A stretch of DNA of 64,000 nt. Source: Acidiferrobacterales bacterium. GTDB taxonomy: Bacteria > Pseudomonadota > Gammaproteobacteria > Enterobacterales > Alteromonadaceae. The translations under genes were made by a program, and so were the position numbers. The stretch spans positions 70,069 to 134,068 of the forward strand of contig CAXMOM010000013.1 in the NCBI GenBank assembly GCA_964195425.1, in the 5' to 3' direction. This document shows, piece after piece, positions 1 through 7,694 of this stretch. Positions within the stretch are counted from its first letter, which is position 1; the number at the start of each line of letters is the position of its first letter. The notes beneath the pieces were generated by a model. It did not search any database and was not told the DNA's origin. It was given only the letters and a program-made list of their open reading frames with translations.

Positions 1-1
1 T

Positions 2-2818
2 ATGAAGTCTATTAACTTAGAATGTCCACGGGCAGAAATAGCACATACTTTAGAAAAAGCGCAAGACGTAGTCACTAGAATTGGCTTTCCATGCATTATT
101 CGTCCCTCGTTTACTATGGGCGGTAGCGGTGGTGGTATTGCTTATAACATTGATGAATTTAACGAAATTTGTACTCGCGGTTTAGATTTATCGCCTACGT
201 CAGAGCTGCTTATCGACGAGTCACTCATTGGCTGGAAAGAGTATGAAATGGAAGTGGTACGCGATAAAGCAGACAACTGCATTATTATATGTACCATTGA
301 GAATATTGACCCCATGGGCGTGCATACCGGTGATTCTATCACGGTTGCTCCAGCACAAACTTTGACGGATAAAGAATTTCAGATTATGCGTAATGCTGCA
401 ATAGCAGTACTGCGTGAAATTGGTGTGGAAACAGGTGGCTCAAACGTCCAGTTTGGTATTGATCCTGAAACCGGCCGAATGGTGATTATTGAAATGAATC
501 CAAGAGTGTCAAGATCGTCTGCGCTAGCATCCAAAGCAACGGGTTTTCCCATTGCTAAAATTGCCGCTAAGCTTGCTATTGGTTACACCCTTGATGAACT
601 AGACAATGACATTACGGGTGGCAAAACGCCGGCCTCATTCGAACCTTCTATCGATTATGTAGTGACTAAAATTCCACGGTTTAACTTTGAAAAATTTGCC
701 GGTGCGAACGATCGTTTAACCACGCAAATGAAGTCAGTCGGCGAAGTAATGGCCATTGGCCGTAATCAACAAGAATCTTTGCAAAAAGCACTGCGTGGAT
801 TAGAAGTTGGCGCGACCGGTTTAAACCCAATTGTTGACTTAAACGACCCTGAAGCAAAAAACAAAATCGTGTTTGAATTACGTGAACCTGGTGCTGAACG
901 TATTTGGTACATTGGCGATGCCTTTAGAATGGGAATGACGGTTGATGAAGTCTTTACCTTAACTAATATAGACCGATGGTACTTAGTCCAAATTGAAGAC
1001 ATTGTTAAACAAGAAGCGTTAATTCAAACTTTGGGATTAGGGGGCATAGACGAAGATTTTATGTACGCATTAAAACGCAAAGGTTTTGCTGATGCACGTA
1101 TTGCTGAATTGACCTTAGTCGCTGAAGATGACGTTCGTGGCAAACGCCTTGATATGTCGATAAAGCCTGTTTATAAACGCGTGGATACCTGCGCGGCAGA
1201 GTTCTCAACGTCTACGGCTTACATGTATTCAACGTATGATGAAGAGTGTGAGGCGCAGCCGTCGTCTAAGCCTAAAATAATGATTATAGGCGGTGGACCG
1301 AACCGAATTGGTCAAGGCATTGAATTTGATTATTGCTGTGTACATGCAGCCTTGGCATTGCGCGATGATGGTTATGAAACCATTATGGTCAACTGTAATC
1401 CAGAAACAGTATCTACCGACTACGATACTTCAGACCGCTTATATTTTGAGTCAGTTACACTAGAAGATGTGTTAGAAATTTGCAGAGTAGAGCAGCCTGA
1501 AGGCGTAATTGTGCAATATGGCGGCCAAACACCGCTTAAGCTTGCACGTGCATTGAAAGAAAATGGAGTCAATATAATCGGCACGCAGCCAGATGCAATT
1601 GACCGAGCAGAAGATCGTGAACGTTTTCAGCAAATGGTCAATAAGTTAGGCCTCAAACAGCCCGCTAATGCAACTGTTAGTAATATGGAACAAGCCCTAG
1701 AGAACGCTGAGAATATCGGTTTTCCTTTAGTGGTTCGTCCTTCATATGTATTGGGCGGTCGAGCAATGGAAATTGTGTATGACCTTAAAGATTTAAAACG
1801 CTACTTAACTGAAGCTGTGAAGGTTTCTAACGACTCTCCAGTATTGCTTGATAGGTTTTTAGATGATGCTATTGAAGTAGACGTAGACGCTATTTGTGAC
1901 GGCACAGACGTCGTCATTGGCGGTATTATGGAGCATATTGAACAAGCGGGTGTGCATTCGGGTGATTCAGCCTGCAGCTTACCGCCTTATTCTTTGTCAA
2001 AAGAAATTCAAGATGTAATGCGTAAGCAGGTAGCCCAAATGGCGCTAGAATTAGGCGTTATTGGCCTTATGAATACTCAGTTTGCGATTAAAGACAACGA
2101 AGTTTATTTGATTGAAGTTAACCCACGCGCGGCTAGAACGGTGCCATTTGTTTCTAAAGCAACGGGCGTACCTTTGGCAAAAATTGCGGCCAGAGTCATG
2201 GCGGGGAAGTCCCTTGCTAGCCAGGGAATTACGAAAGAAACTATACCGCCATTTTATTCAGTTAAAGAGGTCGTGTTACCTTTCGCTAAGTTCCAAGGCG
2301 TCGATCCTTTGCTAGGCCCAGAAATGCGCTCAACAGGTGAAGTGATGGGCATAGGGACGAATTTTGAAGAAGCTTATGCAAAAGCAGGATTAGGCGCTAG
2401 TTCACCACTGCCTAAAAAAGGTAAGGTGTTGGTGTCGGTGCGTAATAACGACAAACACCGCGTACTCGATTTGGCCAAAGTGGTAATTGAAAATGGATTT
2501 ACGCTTGAAGCTACCAGTGGGACTGCTAAATTTATAAACGAAGGTGGTTATGAATGTTCAGTCGTCAATAAATTGTTAGAAGGGCGGCCCAATATAGTAG
2601 ATTTTATTAAAAATGGTGCGTACACCTATATTGTGAATACCACAGAAGGGCGTCAAGCCATTACCGACTCTGTCTATATTAGAAGCGAAGCACTATTAAA
2701 CAAAGTGGCATACACCACTACGTTAAATGCAGCGTTTGCGACTATGCAATCAAAAACCGCCGACGCGTATAAAAATGTGAATTCCATACAAGAATTACAT
2801 AAGCAAATTGACGCTTAA
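2..2818 (+). CDS. carB: Carbamoyl-phosphate synthase large subunit (5'-truncated by the window edge)
   Basis: Duplicated ATP-grasp domains ([27 protein letters not shown]), [25 protein letters not shown] and a C-terminal MGS domain. The Met at position 2 is internal. Confidence 0.98.
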
Positions 2819-2875
2819 AAGCCTACCCAGACTAGACCGATTGTTTTATACTACTGTCCTAACAATCAAAGAAAT

Positions 2876-2905
2876 CGAACGCGTTTAGCGTTCGTTTTCT
2901 GTTTT
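2876..2905 (+). terminator. Intrinsic terminator after carB
   Basis: CGAACGC-GTTTA-GCGTTCG stem followed by TTTTCTGTTTT. Confidence 0.65.
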
Positions 2906-3059
2906 ACTGTTGAATTTATATCGTGAAAAATGCTTAGCAATCTCCTTTTATTGCTGAGTGCGATGACTTTTTATATCGCTGTGCAATGCTATATATCACT
3001 ATGCATTACTATGCCGACTATTCAACACACCATAATAAAAGAATGATAAGAGAATAAGA

Positions 3060-3539
3060 ATGGCGACTACATATCCAATGACCCTGTTAGGGGCGCAAAA
3101 ACTGCGTGAAGAGTTAAATGAGTTAAAGTCTAAAGTAAGACCACGGATCATTAAATCTATTGCTGAGGCCAGAGAGCACGGCGATTTAAAAGAAAATGCA
3201 GAGTATCATGCTGCCCGCGATCAACAGAGTTTTTGTGAAGGACGTATTCAAGATATTGAAGGTAAATTGTCTGGCGCTCAAATTATTGACGTGACCAAAA
3301 TGACTAATAACGGAAAAGTCATCTTTGGTGCAACCGTTAGATTATTGAACGTCGATACCGATGAAGAAATTCAGTATCATATAGTGGGTGATGATGAATC
3401 CGATTTGAAAAATGGTCGTATATCCGTTAATTCCCCCATTGCCCGCGGTTTAATAGGTAAAGAACTTGACGATGTATCAATCATTAAAACCCCAGTGGGC
3501 GTAGTTGAATACGAAATAATTCAAGTTGATTATAAGTAA
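3060..3539 (+). CDS. greA: Transcription elongation factor GreA
   Basis: [13 protein letters not shown] motif and [14 protein letters not shown]; lies directly after carB. Confidence 0.97.
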
Positions 3540-3562
3540 AATAAAAGCCAACTATAAATAGC

Positions 3563-5221
3563 CTATATATAGTTATCATTCGCTAACTTTTTAAGCGCAA
3601 GCTCCAATGCTTGCGTTCTGTTATGCACAAAGTCGGCATCGTTGAGCATAGTTTCAAAGCCCATGCGCATTAACTTTTCTTTGTCCTGTGGTCTTTTGAC
3701 TAACATGACTACTTTCTTATCTAAGCTTTGAGCATCTTTTACTAAGTTCTCGATGGTAAGCGCAATGGTATCATCTAAGAACGACACATCACTTAAATCT
3801 ACTATCAGCGCATGATGATCTCCCAAGCTGCCTAGTTCACGTGACAAGGCTTTTGACACGCCAAATATCATAGTCCCACTCAAATAAAAGTAGAGCAGTT
3901 GACCCTGTGCTTTATTAAGCAAACCTTGTTGCTCTTTGGTAAGGGGCAAACGTCCATCTACATCACTAATTGCTTTTATATTTTTTTCTTGAGAGGTACT
4001 GAGCTTCTCAATGGTAATGATGTTCGCAATAAATACACCAATGCCTACTGCAACCACTAAATCGACAAAGACAGTGAGTAGCAATACTGCATACATGATT
4101 AGACTTGTTTGTTTGGATACTTTGTGTGCTCGCTTTATAAAGCTCCAGTCAAGGATATCGATCCCTACTTTAATTGCAATCCCCGCTAATACTGCGATGG
4201 GAATGACCGAAATTAAGGATGATGCGCCAAATATCGCGACGACTAATATCGCCACCCTCGTTAAACCCGATAGTGCAGATTTTGCGCCGGTTTGGATATT
4301 TACCACAGTACCCATTGTTGCCCCTGCGCCTGGTAGGCCACCAAACAAACCTGAGACCAAATTACCCATGCCTTGGCCAATTAACTCTTTGTCTGACTTG
4401 TGCTCACTTCGTGTAAGGTTGTCGGCAATAACAGAGGTTAACATTGAATCAATACAGCCCAGAATACCTAGCACAATACCATCGAGTATCATTGTTTGCA
4501 GTAGTTCAGGGGTAAATGTGGGAAATACTAATGAGGGTAAACTTACATCTATTTCGCCTATACGTTTAATATTAGGGTCGGAAAGTACGTATACAGAAAT
4601 TACTGAAATAACCACAAGTGCTATTAATTGTGGCGGTACCCACTGTTTGATTCTTCTTGGTGTAAAGAAAATTAGCGCTAGCGTTGCCAAGGCCATACCG
4701 GCTTCAGTTAGACTAAATTGTGATAAGGTGTTGGGGAGGTCTGAAATAGCACCAGTAACGCCTCCACTAGGAGCACTAGCGCCTATAGCGGGTGCAAATT
4801 GCATGATGATTAGAATGCAGCCAATGCCGGACATAAAGCCGCTTATCACGCTGTAGGGCATTAGGGTGATGTACTTCCCAAGTTTTAGCATACCAAACAG
4901 TATTTGCGTTAATCCGGCTATCATGACCACAGTAAATGCCATAGCAAGCCCAGTTTCAGGATATCTAGCAACCATCGCCGTGACTACCGCGGCCATAATC
5001 ACTGTCATGGGGCCTGTTGGTTCTGATATTAAGGTAGGTGTGCCACCAAATAATGCGGCAAAGAAACCAATAATAATTGCGCCATATAATCCTGCCTCAG
5101 GACCCGCGCCCGACGCTACACCAAACGCTAAGGCTAGCGGTAACGAAACAATTGCAGCGGTTAATCCACCAAGAATATCGCCTTTTAAGCTTTTACGATT
5201 AATAGTGTTAAAAATTTTCAA
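3563..5221 (-). CDS. SulP/SLC26 anion transporter with STAS domain, BicA-like (probable bicarbonate transporter)
   Basis: GDILGGLTAAIVSLPLALAFG, LISEPTGPMT, GCIDSMLTS, ELIGQGMGN, GAGATMGT; C-terminal STAS domain (IVDLSDVSFLD). Confidence 0.9.
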   Translation of the reverse strand: MKIFNTINRKSLKGDILGGLTAAIVSLPLALAFGVASGAGPEAGLYGAIIIGFFAALFGGTPTLISEPTGPMTVIMAAVVTAMVARYPETGLAMAFTVVMIAGLTQILFGMLKLGKYITLMPYSVISGFMSGIGCILIIMQFAPAIGASAPSGGVTGAISDLPNTLSQFSLTEAGMALATLALIFFTPRRIKQWVPPQLIALVVISVISVYVLSDPNIKRIGEIDVSLPSLVFPTFTPELLQTMILDGIVLGILGCIDSMLTSVIADNLTRSEHKSDKELIGQGMGNLVSGLFGGLPGAGATMGTVVNIQTGAKSALSGLTRVAILVVAIFGASSLISVIPIAVLAGIAIKVGIDILDWSFIKRAHKVSKQTSLIMYAVLLLTVFVDLVVAVGIGVFIANIITIEKLSTSQEKNIKAISDVDGRLPLTKEQQGLLNKAQGQLLYFYLSGTMIFGVSKALSRELGSLGDHHALIVDLSDVSFLDDTIALTIENLVKDAQSLDKKVVMLVKRPQDKEKLMRMGFETMLNDADFVHNRTQALELALKKLANDNYI

Positions 5222-5299
5222 GTAATTCTCTTTGTGTAGAGCAAGCTTTTAATGCTCAAAAAATAAGGCGCTTTATTTGCACCATATTATATATGATTT

Positions 5300-6832
5300 T
5301 TATTTATTGCTGGTCGGTTCAGGTACCAACTTAGCCGCTTTGCGAGAAACCACAATGCCGCCTAAAAAACTGCTTAGCGCAAGTATCCAAATAGGCCAAT
5401 CACCATATCGTCGATAAGGCGTATATCCTTCAACAAGGGTAATAACGTCCTCAAGTACTAGTGCTTCAAATTGTGGTAATTGACTTTGAATGTGCCCTTC
5501 ATGATTAACAATAGCGGTAACCCCATTGTTAGTTGCACGTAATACAGGTAAACCAAACTCTTTTGCACGCACTTGTGCTATTTGCAAATGTTGATGTGGA
5601 CCATGAGAGTCGCCAAACCAAGCGTCATTACTCACAGTTACAATAGCCTGAGATTGTTCAGTCAGGTTGGCAGCAATTTGTTTTGGAAAAGCAATTTCAA
5701 AGCACATTGCGGGAGTGAAAAAGGTATTTCCAGCCACTAGATTTGCTTGAACATAATCACCTCTAGTAAAAGATGACATGGGTAAATCAAAAATAGGGGC
5801 CATTGGCCTTAGTAATGTTTCGAAAGGGACAAATTCGCCTATAGGCAATAAATGGTGCTTTGAAAAGCGCTTACTATGATTTAATTTGTAGGGCTGAGTA
5901 TTGGAGCCAGTATCTATTCCCAATGCAATTAAAGAGTTGTAGGCAATGTCGGTTTGTAAATCATAATTTATTATGCCAGTAATAAGCCCTGTACTGGTAT
6001 TAGTTGCCTTGGTATCTAATGTTATTAGATACCGTTGTACTAGTGATTCTAATTTAGGCACTGCGGCTTCAGGCCATATAACAATGTCTTTGTTCCAAAA
6101 GGGCTCGGTCATTACCATATATTTATCCATCGCCATTTTATCTTTTTTAGGATCAAATCGCATAGATTGCGCAATATTGCCTTGTACCAAGGCAACGGTT
6201 TTAGTTATGCCCGTTGGCGTACTCCACTGTATATTGCTTAATGCTATAGAACTAATGGTAAAAACGAGCGCTGGTATGCCAGCGTGAAGCCATTGTTTTT
6301 GTGCAATACCTATTGCAGCGCTGCAGGTCACTACTATCATAAGTGCACTTAAGCCAATTTCACCAATTATGGGATACCAAATACTAAATATACTGCTCGT
6401 TTGCGAATAACCAATAGACAACCACGGGAAGCCAGTCATTGCCCAAGCGCGTATCCATTCCATAAATAACCAAGCAAAAGGTAGACAAAGCGGCCATAAA
6501 GCAGGCTTAAAAAACCGTGAAGTTAATGCGATCAATGCTGCAGGAAAAAGTGCCAAATAACCACATAGCATTAGCATAAGCATAAGTGAGGCTATAAGCG
6601 GGAGGCCTCCAAATTCGGCTATGCTGACATGAACCCAAGAAATACCCGCACCAAAATAACCTAGACCAAACCACCAAGCACTTTTGAAGGGCGTTGTTGT
6701 TTGGTAGGCAAGTAAGTATATACAGACGGGTAAAACTGCAAAAATAAGGAACCAGTAGTTAAAAGGTGCAAACGCGAAGGTAAGGCTCGCACCTAAACAA
6801 AAAAGTAGTATATTTACAGCTAAGGAAGTCAG
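5300..6832 (-). CDS. lnt: Apolipoprotein N-acyltransferase (start moved upstream to a probable CTG at 6832)
   Basis: Nitrilase triad WPEAA / SKHHLLPIGEF / AMCFEIAF. The frame is open 83 codons upstream of the tracked Met and encodes the typical Lnt N-terminus (LTFAFAPF...FGLGYFGAGISWVHVSI), giving 510 aa. Confidence 0.93.
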   Translation of the reverse strand: MTSLAVNILLFCLGASLTFAFAPFNYWFLIFAVLPVCIYLLAYQTTTPFKSAWWFGLGYFGAGISWVHVSIAEFGGLPLIASLMLMLMLCGYLALFPAALIALTSRFFKPALWPLCLPFAWLFMEWIRAWAMTGFPWLSIGYSQTSSIFSIWYPIIGEIGLSALMIVVTCSAAIGIAQKQWLHAGIPALVFTISSIALSNIQWSTPTGITKTVALVQGNIAQSMRFDPKKDKMAMDKYMVMTEPFWNKDIVIWPEAAVPKLESLVQRYLITLDTKATNTSTGLITGIINYDLQTDIAYNSLIALGIDTGSNTQPYKLNHSKRFSKHHLLPIGEFVPFETLLRPMAPIFDLPMSSFTRGDYVQANLVAGNTFFTPAMCFEIAFPKQIAANLTEQSQAIVTVSNDAWFGDSHGPHQHLQIAQVRAKEFGLPVLRATNNGVTAIVNHEGHIQSQLPQFEALVLEDVITLVEGYTPYRRYGDWPIWILALSSFLGGIVVSRKAAKLVPEPTSNK

Positions 6833-6833
6833 G

Positions 6834-7694
6834 CTAACTCTCCAGTTCTGGCAAGTACACCTTAAGTTGTAATAGGCGCCGCTTGTCAGAATTAGTCACT
6901 TCAAACTGTATATTATCAACATCGATTTTTTCACCAGTTTCAGGCATGTGGCCAAAGGCACGCAGCACAACACCGCCGATGGTATCAGAATTACCTGAGT
7001 TAAAAGATGATTCAAAAAATTTATTAAAATCGTCAACTGGGGTCAGAGCTTTAACTGAATAAGTAGATTTGTTTAGCGGGCGTATATTATCATTTTCATC
7101 TATTTCATCATCGTATTCATCTTCAATTTCGCCTACGATAAGCTCTAATATATCTTCAATGGTAACTAAGCCTGATACGCCGCCATATTCGTCGACCACT
7201 ATTGCCATATGATAGCGTTGTTGCCTAAAGTCCTTTAGCAGAACATCAACCCGTTTGCTTTCAGGCACAATTACCGCTTCGCGAATAACATCTTTAAGTA
7301 CAAAACTTTTTTCGTCGTTAAAGGCATAAGGAAGCAAGTCTTTTGCAAGTAATATACCTTCAATATGGTCTTTGTCTTCACTAATTACAGGAAAACGACT
7401 ATGGGCAGAATCTAATACTAAGGGTAAAAATTGGTCAACCGACTGTTCAATATCAATGGTGATCATTTGCGCGCGAGGTATCATGATTTCGCGGACTTTA
7501 ATTTCACTGACACCCATAACACCTTCAATCATTTCTTTTGTTTGAGGGTCTATTACTTCTCGGGTTTCAGCATCAGAAATTAAATCTGATAACTCTTCTT
7601 TATTTTGCGGCTCTCCTTTAAAGTTGGTCATTAATTTAGCTAACCAGCTTTTGTTAGAAGAACCGTTGGTTGAGTGGGGGTTATCGTCGCTCAT
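6834..7694 (-). CDS. corC: CBS/CorC-HlyC domain Mg/Co transport protein
   Basis: HSRFPV, VVDEYGGVSGLVTIEDILELIVGEIEDEYD; sits between ybeY and lnt as in E. coli. Confidence 0.95.
   Translation of the reverse strand: MSDDNPHSTNGSSNKSWLAKLMTNFKGEPQNKEELSDLISDAETREVIDPQTKEMIEGVMGVSEIKVREIMIPRAQMITIDIEQSVDQFLPLVLDSAHSRFPVISEDKDHIEGILLAKDLLPYAFNDEKSFVLKDVIREAVIVPESKRVDVLLKDFRQQRYHMAIVVDEYGGVSGLVTIEDILELIVGEIEDEYDDEIDENDNIRPLNKSTYSVKALTPVDDFNKFFESSFNSGNSDTIGGVVLRAFGHMPETGEKIDVDNIQFEVTNSDKRRLLQLKVYLPELES

Follow-up and report, generated by a model that had tools for sequence, protein, structure and literature searches.

A SulP transporter of a Glaciecola-like marine bacterium belongs to a gammaproteobacterial sister clade of cyanobacterial BicA1 and is a candidate bicarbonate importer

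In this study we analysed a gene at positions 3563..5221 on the minus strand of a 64,000-nucleotide stretch of DNA (the window) from a Glaciecola-like marine bacterium, whose genome is rated 100% complete. According to its open reading frame and translation, the gene has a TTG start and one stop codon and encodes a BicA1-like SulP/STAS anion transporter of 552 aa. On one side carB (2-2818) and greA (3060-3539), both on the plus strand, converge on it; on the other side lnt (5300-6583) lies upstream on the same strand as the transporter gene. These coordinates and strands agree with the statement of an earlier note, made from the letters alone, that the gene is convergent with carB-greA and that co-transcription is not implied. 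The stop codon of lnt and the start of the transporter gene are separated by a gap of 78 nt, in which a simple consensus scan marks a terminator-like hairpin with a T-run (5267..5283, minus strand); this suggests that transcription of the miaB-phoH-ybeY-corC-lnt string does not simply continue into the transporter. A promoter scan of the same gap gave no sigma-70-like site, no Rfam family matched within 2700-7000, and the antisense open reading frames at 4011-4856 and 4866-5225 had no Pfam match.

The protein consists of a transmembrane transport domain (residues 12-378, 4088..5188 on the minus strand; Pfam PF00916 Sulfate_transp, E 8e-91) and, towards the C-terminus, a STAS domain (residues 439-526, 3644..3907 on the minus strand; PF01740, E 6e-9), the architecture expected of a BicA protein of about 550 aa. 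The Pfam family Sulfate_transp as such covers many substrates. Reading frame and domains together confirm the intact SulP and STAS transporter that had been read at this place, and all six peptides quoted from it are present, at residues 33-48, 58-74, 254-267, 298-312, 351-366 and 447-462. The closest structure is that of Synechocystis BicA (6KI1, E 4e-153), matched over 391 residues (3-393) without a gap, and the STAS domain matches the BicA STAS structure 6KI2 with E 4.7e-17. An AlphaFold model built from a 12-row alignment (mean pLDDT 61, pTM 0.56) was too poor for a fold search; it was also unnecessary, since the sequence match to 6KI1 is ungapped.

How close is the protein to BicA itself? 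On the NCBIfam BicA model (NF050096) it scores 804.8 bits and covers model positions 2-545 of 547, but it misses the curated equivalog cut-off, which is set at 880 bits for the whole protein. Five cyanobacterial proteins reached 965-1021 bits on this model and five gammaproteobacterial ones 821-866; every gammaproteobacterial protein scored falls under the cut-off, and none of the 151 same-family or 201 class genomes holds a protein of at least 880 bits. The scores on other models are much lower, with 244.3 bits on the generic sulP model (TIGR00815, cut-off 380; the broad Pfam Sulfate_transp family does match) and 233.6 bits on the DauA model (NF008660, cut-off 614). Its identity to 16 cyanobacterial BicA proteins above the NCBIfam BicA cut-off is 58-61%. 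Its transport domain contains EPTGP with T69 in TM3, D258 and T262 in TM8, and in TM10, at residues 298-306, the BicA1-type motif GAGATMGTV with T302 and G304, where the variable position is a glycine and not an arginine; T69, D258, T262 and T302 stand at the same residue numbers as in BicA. The residues E67-P-T69-G-P, D258, T262 and G-A-T302-M-G304-T are invariant in the alignment (48/48 gammaproteobacterial and 16/16 cyanobacterial rows), and GAGATMGTV is found in 31/31 fetched top-scoring family proteins (774-869 bits), whereas E. coli DauA and the genome's second SulP have different residues at 258, 262 and 302. In BicA, D258, T262 and T302 coordinate Na+ and T69 belongs to the substrate site (bioRxiv 10.1101/2022.06.08.495363). 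Bicarbonate uptake in E. coli needs the glycine in the TM10 motif, and an arginine there abolishes it (PMC13588710). Model scores, structure match and alignment thus bear out the earlier reading of a protein that is BicA-like over its whole length with the Na+ and substrate motifs intact.

In a tree of 79 proteins (quick LG+G4, SH-aLRT support) the transporter falls into a gammaproteobacterial clade (support 99) that is sister to cyanobacterial BicA1 and does not lie inside the BicA1 group. Both are part of a BicA clade with support of 100 and a branch of 0.57, far from E. coli DauA and from the other SulP of the genome, so that the expected grouping with BicA, and not with DauA or generic SulPs, is upheld. 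Among the outgroup cluster representatives, the nearest (38-44% identity) have the GATMRT motif of the BicA2 type; hence the clade seems to be flanked on either side by relatives whose motifs match those of the bicarbonate transporters BicA1 and BicA2, the outgroup by motif match only. Among the searches made, the gammaproteobacterial clade appears to be the closest relative of BicA1 outside the cyanobacteria. Its members include Glaciecola, Alteromonas, Neptuniibacter, Marinomonas, Vibrionaceae, Moritella, Psychromonas and others, and the gene was found in 36/151 sampled genomes of the same family (24%) and in 7/200 other gammaproteobacterial families sampled. The gene had been presented as an oddity in a heterotroph; this framing goes too far, given how widespread the clade is among marine Gammaproteobacteria. 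Whole-word literature searches for BicA returned no paper on the clade in Alteromonadaceae or Vibrionaceae, and in the literature searched no transport assay was found for any of its gammaproteobacterial members.

From the sequence, residues, phylogeny and gene order computed here we infer substrate, ion coupling, direction of transport and physiological role: the protein is probably a BicA-type, Na+-coupled bicarbonate importer that serves general bicarbonate supply and is not coupled to CarAB. It would work as a SulP/SLC26 elevator transporter with a STAS domain. By analogy to Synechocystis BicA, two half-helices, TM3 and TM10, would hold the anion between their N-termini (T69, A301/T302), D258, T262 and T302 would bind Na+, and G304 would give the TM10 motif GAGATMGTV its 'active' form. 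Uptake might be powered by the sodium-motive force of the marine bacterium, in seawater where bicarbonate far exceeds CO2, and the imported bicarbonate would supply PEP carboxylase, carbamoyl-phosphate synthase, acetyl-CoA carboxylase and other bicarbonate-using carboxylases. PEP carboxylase, a beta-carbonic anhydrase and NqrA are encoded in the genome. The importer would work beside the cytoplasmic beta-carbonic anhydrase, not as a substitute for it; that such an enzyme is already present speaks against an importer. RuBisCO large subunit, DabA, SbtA and alpha-carbonic anhydrase were not found in the genome. The host is thus a heterotroph, as had been assumed, as far as the missing RuBisCO large subunit can tell, and with RuBisCO, DabA and SbtA all absent from the genome the transporter does not appear as a component of a RuBisCO-serving carbon-concentrating mechanism. 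Since neither RuBisCO nor a carbon-concentrating context was found, the physiological need is likewise something that we infer. A cluster of neighbouring genes labelled 'ABC_tran+NMT1_2', which resembled CmpC/NrtC beside the gammaproteobacterial transporter genes, was set aside, as its gammaproteobacterial members are ABC ATPases of 232-342 aa that were probably grouped through the shared ATPase domain only.

It might be possible that the protein has the same fold and belongs to the same clade but carries another substrate, such as sulfate or a small oxyanion, with the BicA-like motifs being features of the clade and not determinants of specificity. The score below the BicA equivalog cut-off would fit this, as would the names of close relatives in the databases, which read only 'SulP family inorganic anion transporter' or 'sulfate permease', and the substrate range of SulP proteins is hard to predict from sequence (PMC10880623). 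Sbp/CysP, the sulfate-binding component of the ABC uptake system, was looked for in the genome and not found, so that a SulP could in principle carry sulfate. However, CysZ (175 bits) and CysN are present, which gives sulfate uptake another route, and a generic SulP paralogue that is near-universal in the sampled family genomes is available as well. An essential sulfate route would hardly be confined to 24% of the family genomes, and the complete Na+ and anion signature is that of BicA1, unlike DauA and the generic SulP. In addition, a beta-carbonic anhydrase gene is the divergent neighbour of the transporter gene in two lineages, Catenovulum/G057 and Grimontia/Enterovibrio. Weighing these points, we regard a substrate other than bicarbonate as unlikely.

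Somewhat less likely still is that a Na+/bicarbonate carrier mainly keeps ion or pH balance, by buffering the cytoplasm or by cycling Na+ together with antiporters, instead of serving carbon supply. Recurrent partners of the gene are indeed Na+/H+ antiporters of the NhaA, MrpA and NhaS3-like kinds: NhaA lies directly upstream in Agaribacter, Glaciecola and one genome of the same genus, and MrpA adjoins the gene in two Glaciecola MAGs. These neighbours, which count in favour of bicarbonate import as well, parallel the Na_H_Exchanger/Mrp (NhaS3/Mrp) genes located after bicA in 22 cyanobacterial loci, although no such genes follow the gene in the window. Moreover, the genome already has a beta-carbonic anhydrase to make bicarbonate from respiratory CO2. 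In cyanobacteria, however, the antiporter linkage is usually read as a means to export the Na+ that enters with bicarbonate, and carbon supply is the accepted role. The carbonic anhydrase neighbours in two lineages point to carbon chemistry, and the window gives no sign of pH stress. As a point against the importer reading, carbonic anhydrase and antiporter neighbours occur in only a minority of loci, which does not include this window.

The earlier note had proposed a specific role in feeding CarAB. CarB consumes bicarbonate, and adjacency to carB-greA was seen in 15/80 named loci and in 8 of the best 30 family loci. The 15 loci all belong to one Alteromonadaceae subgroup (Glaciecola/Alteromonas/Opacimonas), whereas neither carB nor greA occurs within 4 kb of the gene in any gammaproteobacterial locus outside the Alteromonadaceae or in any of about 45 cyanobacterial loci. 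We compared the positions of greA and lnt in 151 genomes and fetched six regions that correspond to the slot between them. Here corC-lnt and greA-carB abut directly without a transporter in three genomes, other, unrelated small open reading frames fill the slot in three more, and in another two genomes the gene remains beside lnt, with greA on a different contig. The linkage is therefore not conserved, and the position next to carB-greA looks like that of a gene inserted, or kept, in a variable slot between convergent housekeeping blocks rather than a sign of functional coupling. A possible second link to pyrimidine synthesis, an amidohydrolase between lnt and the transporter in three relatives, turned out to be a Xaa-Pro dipeptidase, which is not a pyrimidine enzyme. 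With the genes convergent and greA in between, a bicarbonate importer functionally tied to carbamoyl-phosphate synthase, its carAB neighbourhood selected for that purpose, is largely refuted by the gene-order data and very improbable; the apparent coupling to carbamoyl-phosphate synthesis is an artefact that arises from conserved gene order.

Returning to general bicarbonate supply, the gammaproteobacterial sister clade of BicA1 as a whole could be a working Na+/bicarbonate uptake system of marine heterotrophs, perhaps acquired from cyanobacteria in ancient times, a view that we hold only tentatively. Such an acquisition is possible because a deep-branching Thermostichus-type protein lies outside both the gammaproteobacterial and the BicA1 clade. 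If the idea is true, the clade could both mark and determine heterotrophic (anaplerotic) dark uptake of dissolved inorganic carbon (DIC). Anaplerotic DIC fixation in the ocean is increasingly viewed as significant. For Alteromonas-like bacteria, heterotrophic dark DIC uptake is now reported to be quantitatively important. One paper (PMC13447088) focuses on Alteromonas and PEP carboxylase; a term search of it gave no mention of transporters or carbonic anhydrase. The motif-complete and clearly delimited BicA-type clade is a ready candidate for the step by which DIC enters marine Gammaproteobacteria. For the window itself the outcome mainly corrects the earlier reading: the gene is real and resembles BicA, but within its family it is nothing unusual.

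Among known systems, E. coli DauA (YchM), a C4-dicarboxylate SulP, has the SulP and STAS architecture in common with the window transporter, but it is only 26% identical, has E258, C262 and I302 at the site positions and is a far outgroup in the tree. For marine heterotrophs, SulP-type bicarbonate importers that feed anaplerosis had been put forward before (PMC3595038); for transporters such as DDD_2127 of Nonlabens dokdonensis the proposed role is the same, namely Na+-dependent bicarbonate import for anaplerotic carboxylases. Together with the SulP DIC transporters of autotrophic Proteobacteria (PMC10880623) we group them as the closest known systems, on the understanding that these assignments concern other SulP lineages and are set beside our clade by their descriptions. 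A related bicarbonate transporter of the SulP family, BicA2, is that of Prochlorococcus and marine Synechococcus (PMC13588710), with the same TM3/TM8/TM10 framework. BicA2 has a G where the window transporter has E67, and its TM10 motif is the arginine form, GAGATMRTV, which is inactive in E. coli (PMC13588710), whereas the window transporter has the glycine form. Cyanobacterial BicA1 differs in passing the 880-bit cut-off and in forming a clade separate from the gammaproteobacterial one, and yet Synechocystis BicA1 (sll0834, 6KI1/6KI2) has most in common with the window transporter: architecture, length, the motifs EPTGP and GAGATMGTV, and the residues T69, D258, T262, T302 and G304.

The transporter gene is a single unbroken ORF of 552 codons with a TTG start (3563-5221, minus strand), and its N-terminus, with a TTG or GTG start, is common to the query and its same-genus relatives. 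All six peptides quoted in the earlier note were found in it (residues 33-48, 58-74, 254-267, 298-312, 351-366 and 447-462). Pfam assigns a Sulfate_transp domain to residues 12-378 (E 8e-91) and a STAS domain to residues 439-526 (E 6e-9); two plus-strand ORFs that overlap the transporter gene (4011-4856 and 4866-5225) matched no Pfam family, and an Rfam search of positions 2700-7000 matched no family. As previously described, carB (2-2818, plus strand) and greA (3060-3539, plus strand) converge on the minus-strand transporter, while lnt, corC, ybeY, phoH and miaB lie upstream on its own strand. The 78 nt that separate lnt from the transporter start hold a hairpin with a T-run that resembles a terminator (5283-5267, minus strand), which speaks against simple read-through from lnt; promoter calling in this gap returned none. 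The true start of lnt (region 5300-6900, minus strand) probably lies upstream of 6583, since the ATG-started ORF has 427 aa and the open frame around the match 531 aa, with frames of ∼500-560 aa in relatives.

Judged by its sequence, the query is a member of the nearest non-cyanobacterial sister clade to BicA and has retained all residues of known importance. We built a quick IQ-TREE phylogeny (LG+G4) of 79 proteins: the query, 19 proteins from genomes of the same family, 28 named non-cyanobacterial (mostly gammaproteobacterial) loci, 16 named cyanobacteria and 13 representatives of 50%-identity clusters, with E. coli DauA and the second SulP of the host as outgroup. The BicA clade (SH-aLRT 100, branch 0.57) comprises the representative of the Thermostichus / Synechococcus JA-2-3B'a cluster, cyanobacterial BicA1 (support 94) and a gammaproteobacterial group of 49 rows that includes the query (support 99); the branches of DauA and the second host SulP are more than 3 long. 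The same gap appeared in an exhaustive search of 50%-identity representatives, with one at 55% identity (609 bits) and the next at 45% (463 bits). Hence the query does not cluster with dicarboxylate or sulfate SulPs, the placement that the earlier note had set against its own reading. A signature of 13 site residues, read off a MAFFT alignment of the 79 proteins in the tree, is identical in 48 of 48 gammaproteobacterial rows, in 16 of 16 cyanobacterial rows and in the Thermostichus-type representative. One cluster representative, P0125, falls inside the gammaproteobacterial group on an end branch of 2.28; because it is just 44% identical to the query despite its full BicA1 signature we regard this placement as unsafe, and P0125 may represent either an offshoot that evolves fast or an artefact of tree placement. 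We also noted a copy with 89% identity to the query, nested in the Glaciecola group, on a contig labelled as a Flavobacteriales MAG (locus L038, JBNMPD010000029.1); this most likely reflects mis-binning of a Glaciecola contig and not a recent transfer.

On the NCBIfam BicA equivalog, cyanobacterial proteins score 965-1021 bits and gammaproteobacterial ones 821-866 bits, and the curated cut-off of 880 bits falls between the two. That cut-off is missed by the query (805 bits) and by each of the 36 top-scoring family proteins (774-869 bits), so the query should not be classed as a BicA equivalog. Sources naming its close relatives use only ‘SulP family inorganic anion transporter’ or ‘sulfate permease’. 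Its nearest matches are proteins of Glaciecola, Agaribacter, Ningiella and Alteromonas, with 95% identity to one Glaciecola MAG. Matches of 774-869 bits occur in 36 of the 151 sampled family genomes (24%). A second SulP tier (470-569 bits on the BicA model), absent from the host genome, was found in about thirty other family genomes (for example G148:C224:2712-4301 and G131:C14:70955-72544), and a generic SulP (∼200-300 bits) in nearly all 151. Among 200 other gammaproteobacterial families, represented by one genome each, seven gave a match at E ≤ 1e-200. A pattern scan of species genomes returned at least 570 relatives, the best 80 of which include Neptuniibacter, Marinobacterium, Marinomonas, Grimontia, Enterovibrio, Pseudoalteromonas rubra, Moritella, Psychromonas, Motilimonas, Marinicella and about 45 cyanobacteria.

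We searched the whole assembly of the host (4.54 Mb, 73 contigs, rated 100% complete). It has one clear copy of beta-carbonic anhydrase, PEP carboxylase, NqrA of the Na+-pumping NADH:quinone reductase, CysN, CysZ (C19:123680-124333) and a second SulP of the generic DauA-like type (C3:12775-13872); searches of this assembly for the RuBisCO large subunit, DabA, SbtA, alpha-carbonic anhydrase and an ABC sulfate-binding protein (Sbp/CysP) found none. On balance we favor a BicA-type elevator transporter whose likely role would be Na+-driven HCO3- import supplying carboxylases. BicA has been described as a dimer (bioRxiv 10.1101/2022.06.08.495363). Bicarbonate would bind between the half-helices of TM3 and TM10, with Na+ held at D258, T262 and T302 and import powered by the sodium-motive force. 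In alkaline seawater the imported bicarbonate would be used by PEP carboxylase, CarAB and acetyl-CoA carboxylase, among other carboxylases, with the beta-carbonic anhydrase equilibrating it with CO2. That the substrate is another anion seems unlikely: this reading is weakened by the site signature, by the presence of CysZ and a universal generic SulP, through one or both of which sulfate probably enters the host, and by the patchy distribution of the BicA-like gene. A role in pH or Na+ homeostasis is a rather doubtful reading.

In cyanobacteria, a PF00999 Na+/H+ exchanger follows bicA in 22 loci, and about 19 have Mrp antiporter subunits close by. Of the gammaproteobacterial clade, two Agaribacter loci, two Glaciecola loci and one same-genus genome have NhaA as the immediate upstream gene in the same orientation, MrpA adjoins the transporter in two Glaciecola MAGs, and beta-carbonic anhydrase is a divergent neighbor in the Catenovulum/G057 and Grimontia/Enterovibrio lineages. 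NhaA, MrpA and beta-carbonic anhydrase are partners expected for a Na+/HCO3- symporter; their associations occur in a minority of loci and none within the window.

Coupling specifically to CarAB, as the earlier note proposed from the carB-greA neighborhood, is very improbable. When the linkage was counted, greA and carB followed the transporter in 15 of 80 named loci (the best 80 of at least 570; 4-kb flanks), all of them Glaciecola, Alteromonas or Opacimonas and usually in the order corC-lnt-transporter-greA-carB; the 4-kb flanks of the remaining gammaproteobacterial and cyanobacterial loci in this set held neither gene. Within flanks of 1.5 kb, both genes are present in 8 of the 30 best loci of the family. 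We compared greA and lnt positions in the 151 genomes and fetched six regions. In three genomes (G144, G115, G064) corC-lnt abuts greA-carB without the transporter, 178-671 bp separating the matches, and in three others (G048, G020, G141; loci L119, L120, L121) the slot holds unrelated small ORFs of 139-300 aa, so in Alteromonadaceae this junction behaves as a general site of insertion or variation. In G131 (same genus) and G146 the transporter is still beside lnt, with greA on another contig. From these gene orders the transporter occupies a variable slot at the convergent junction of two housekeeping blocks, and that it lies beside carB is a matter of inherited gene order and no evidence of coupling. 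An amidohydrolase in the slot of three relatives, considered as a pyrimidine enzyme, proved to be an Xaa-Pro dipeptidase. In two Neptuniibacter loci (L053 and L057, ∼1-5700) the BicA-like gene is divergent from miaB-phoH-ybeY-corC, the housekeeping string of the window, but sits at its opposite end, with lnt absent; the arrangement may be coincidental or left over from a shared ancestry of the locus.

Genome papers on marine heterotrophs have already put forward Na+-dependent bicarbonate import of SulP or SbtA type as a supply for anaplerosis, for example in Nonlabens (PMC3595038) and, with SbtA, in SAR11 IIIa (PMC10030771), and SulP DIC transporters are known from autotrophic Proteobacteria (PMC10880623). 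Our literature search for this gammaproteobacterial sister clade of BicA1 found no paper on it among those searched, and a recent study on dark DIC fixation in Alteromonas (PMC13447088) has none of the transporter or carbonic-anhydrase terms looked for in it. The locus is of modest interest as a clearly bounded candidate, open to testing, for the entry of DIC into marine heterotrophs, and not for its carB neighborhood.

The likeness to BicA itself was borne out by structures, models and site residues. Of the solved structures, 6KI1, the transmembrane domain of Synechocystis BicA, matches best (E 4.2e-153), gap-free over residues 3-393 with 70 identities within the first 102 columns, and the BicA STAS domain 6KI2 is matched as well (E 4.7e-17). 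On NCBIfam models the query scores 804.8 bits as BicA equivalog versus 244 for generic sulP and 234 for DauA. The residues reported to coordinate Na+ in BicA, Asp258, Thr262 and Thr302 (bioRxiv 10.1101/2022.06.08.495363), carry the same numbers in the query, as does T69 of EPTGP. Its intact TM10 motif, GAGATMGTV, is the BicA1 form, the glycine of which is required for HCO3- uptake in E. coli and is replaced in BicA2 by an arginine that abolishes uptake (PMC13588710). The next-nearest cluster representatives mostly carry G67 and R304, a BicA2-like pattern, and DauA and the second SulP of the host depart from the query signature at 258, 262 and 302.
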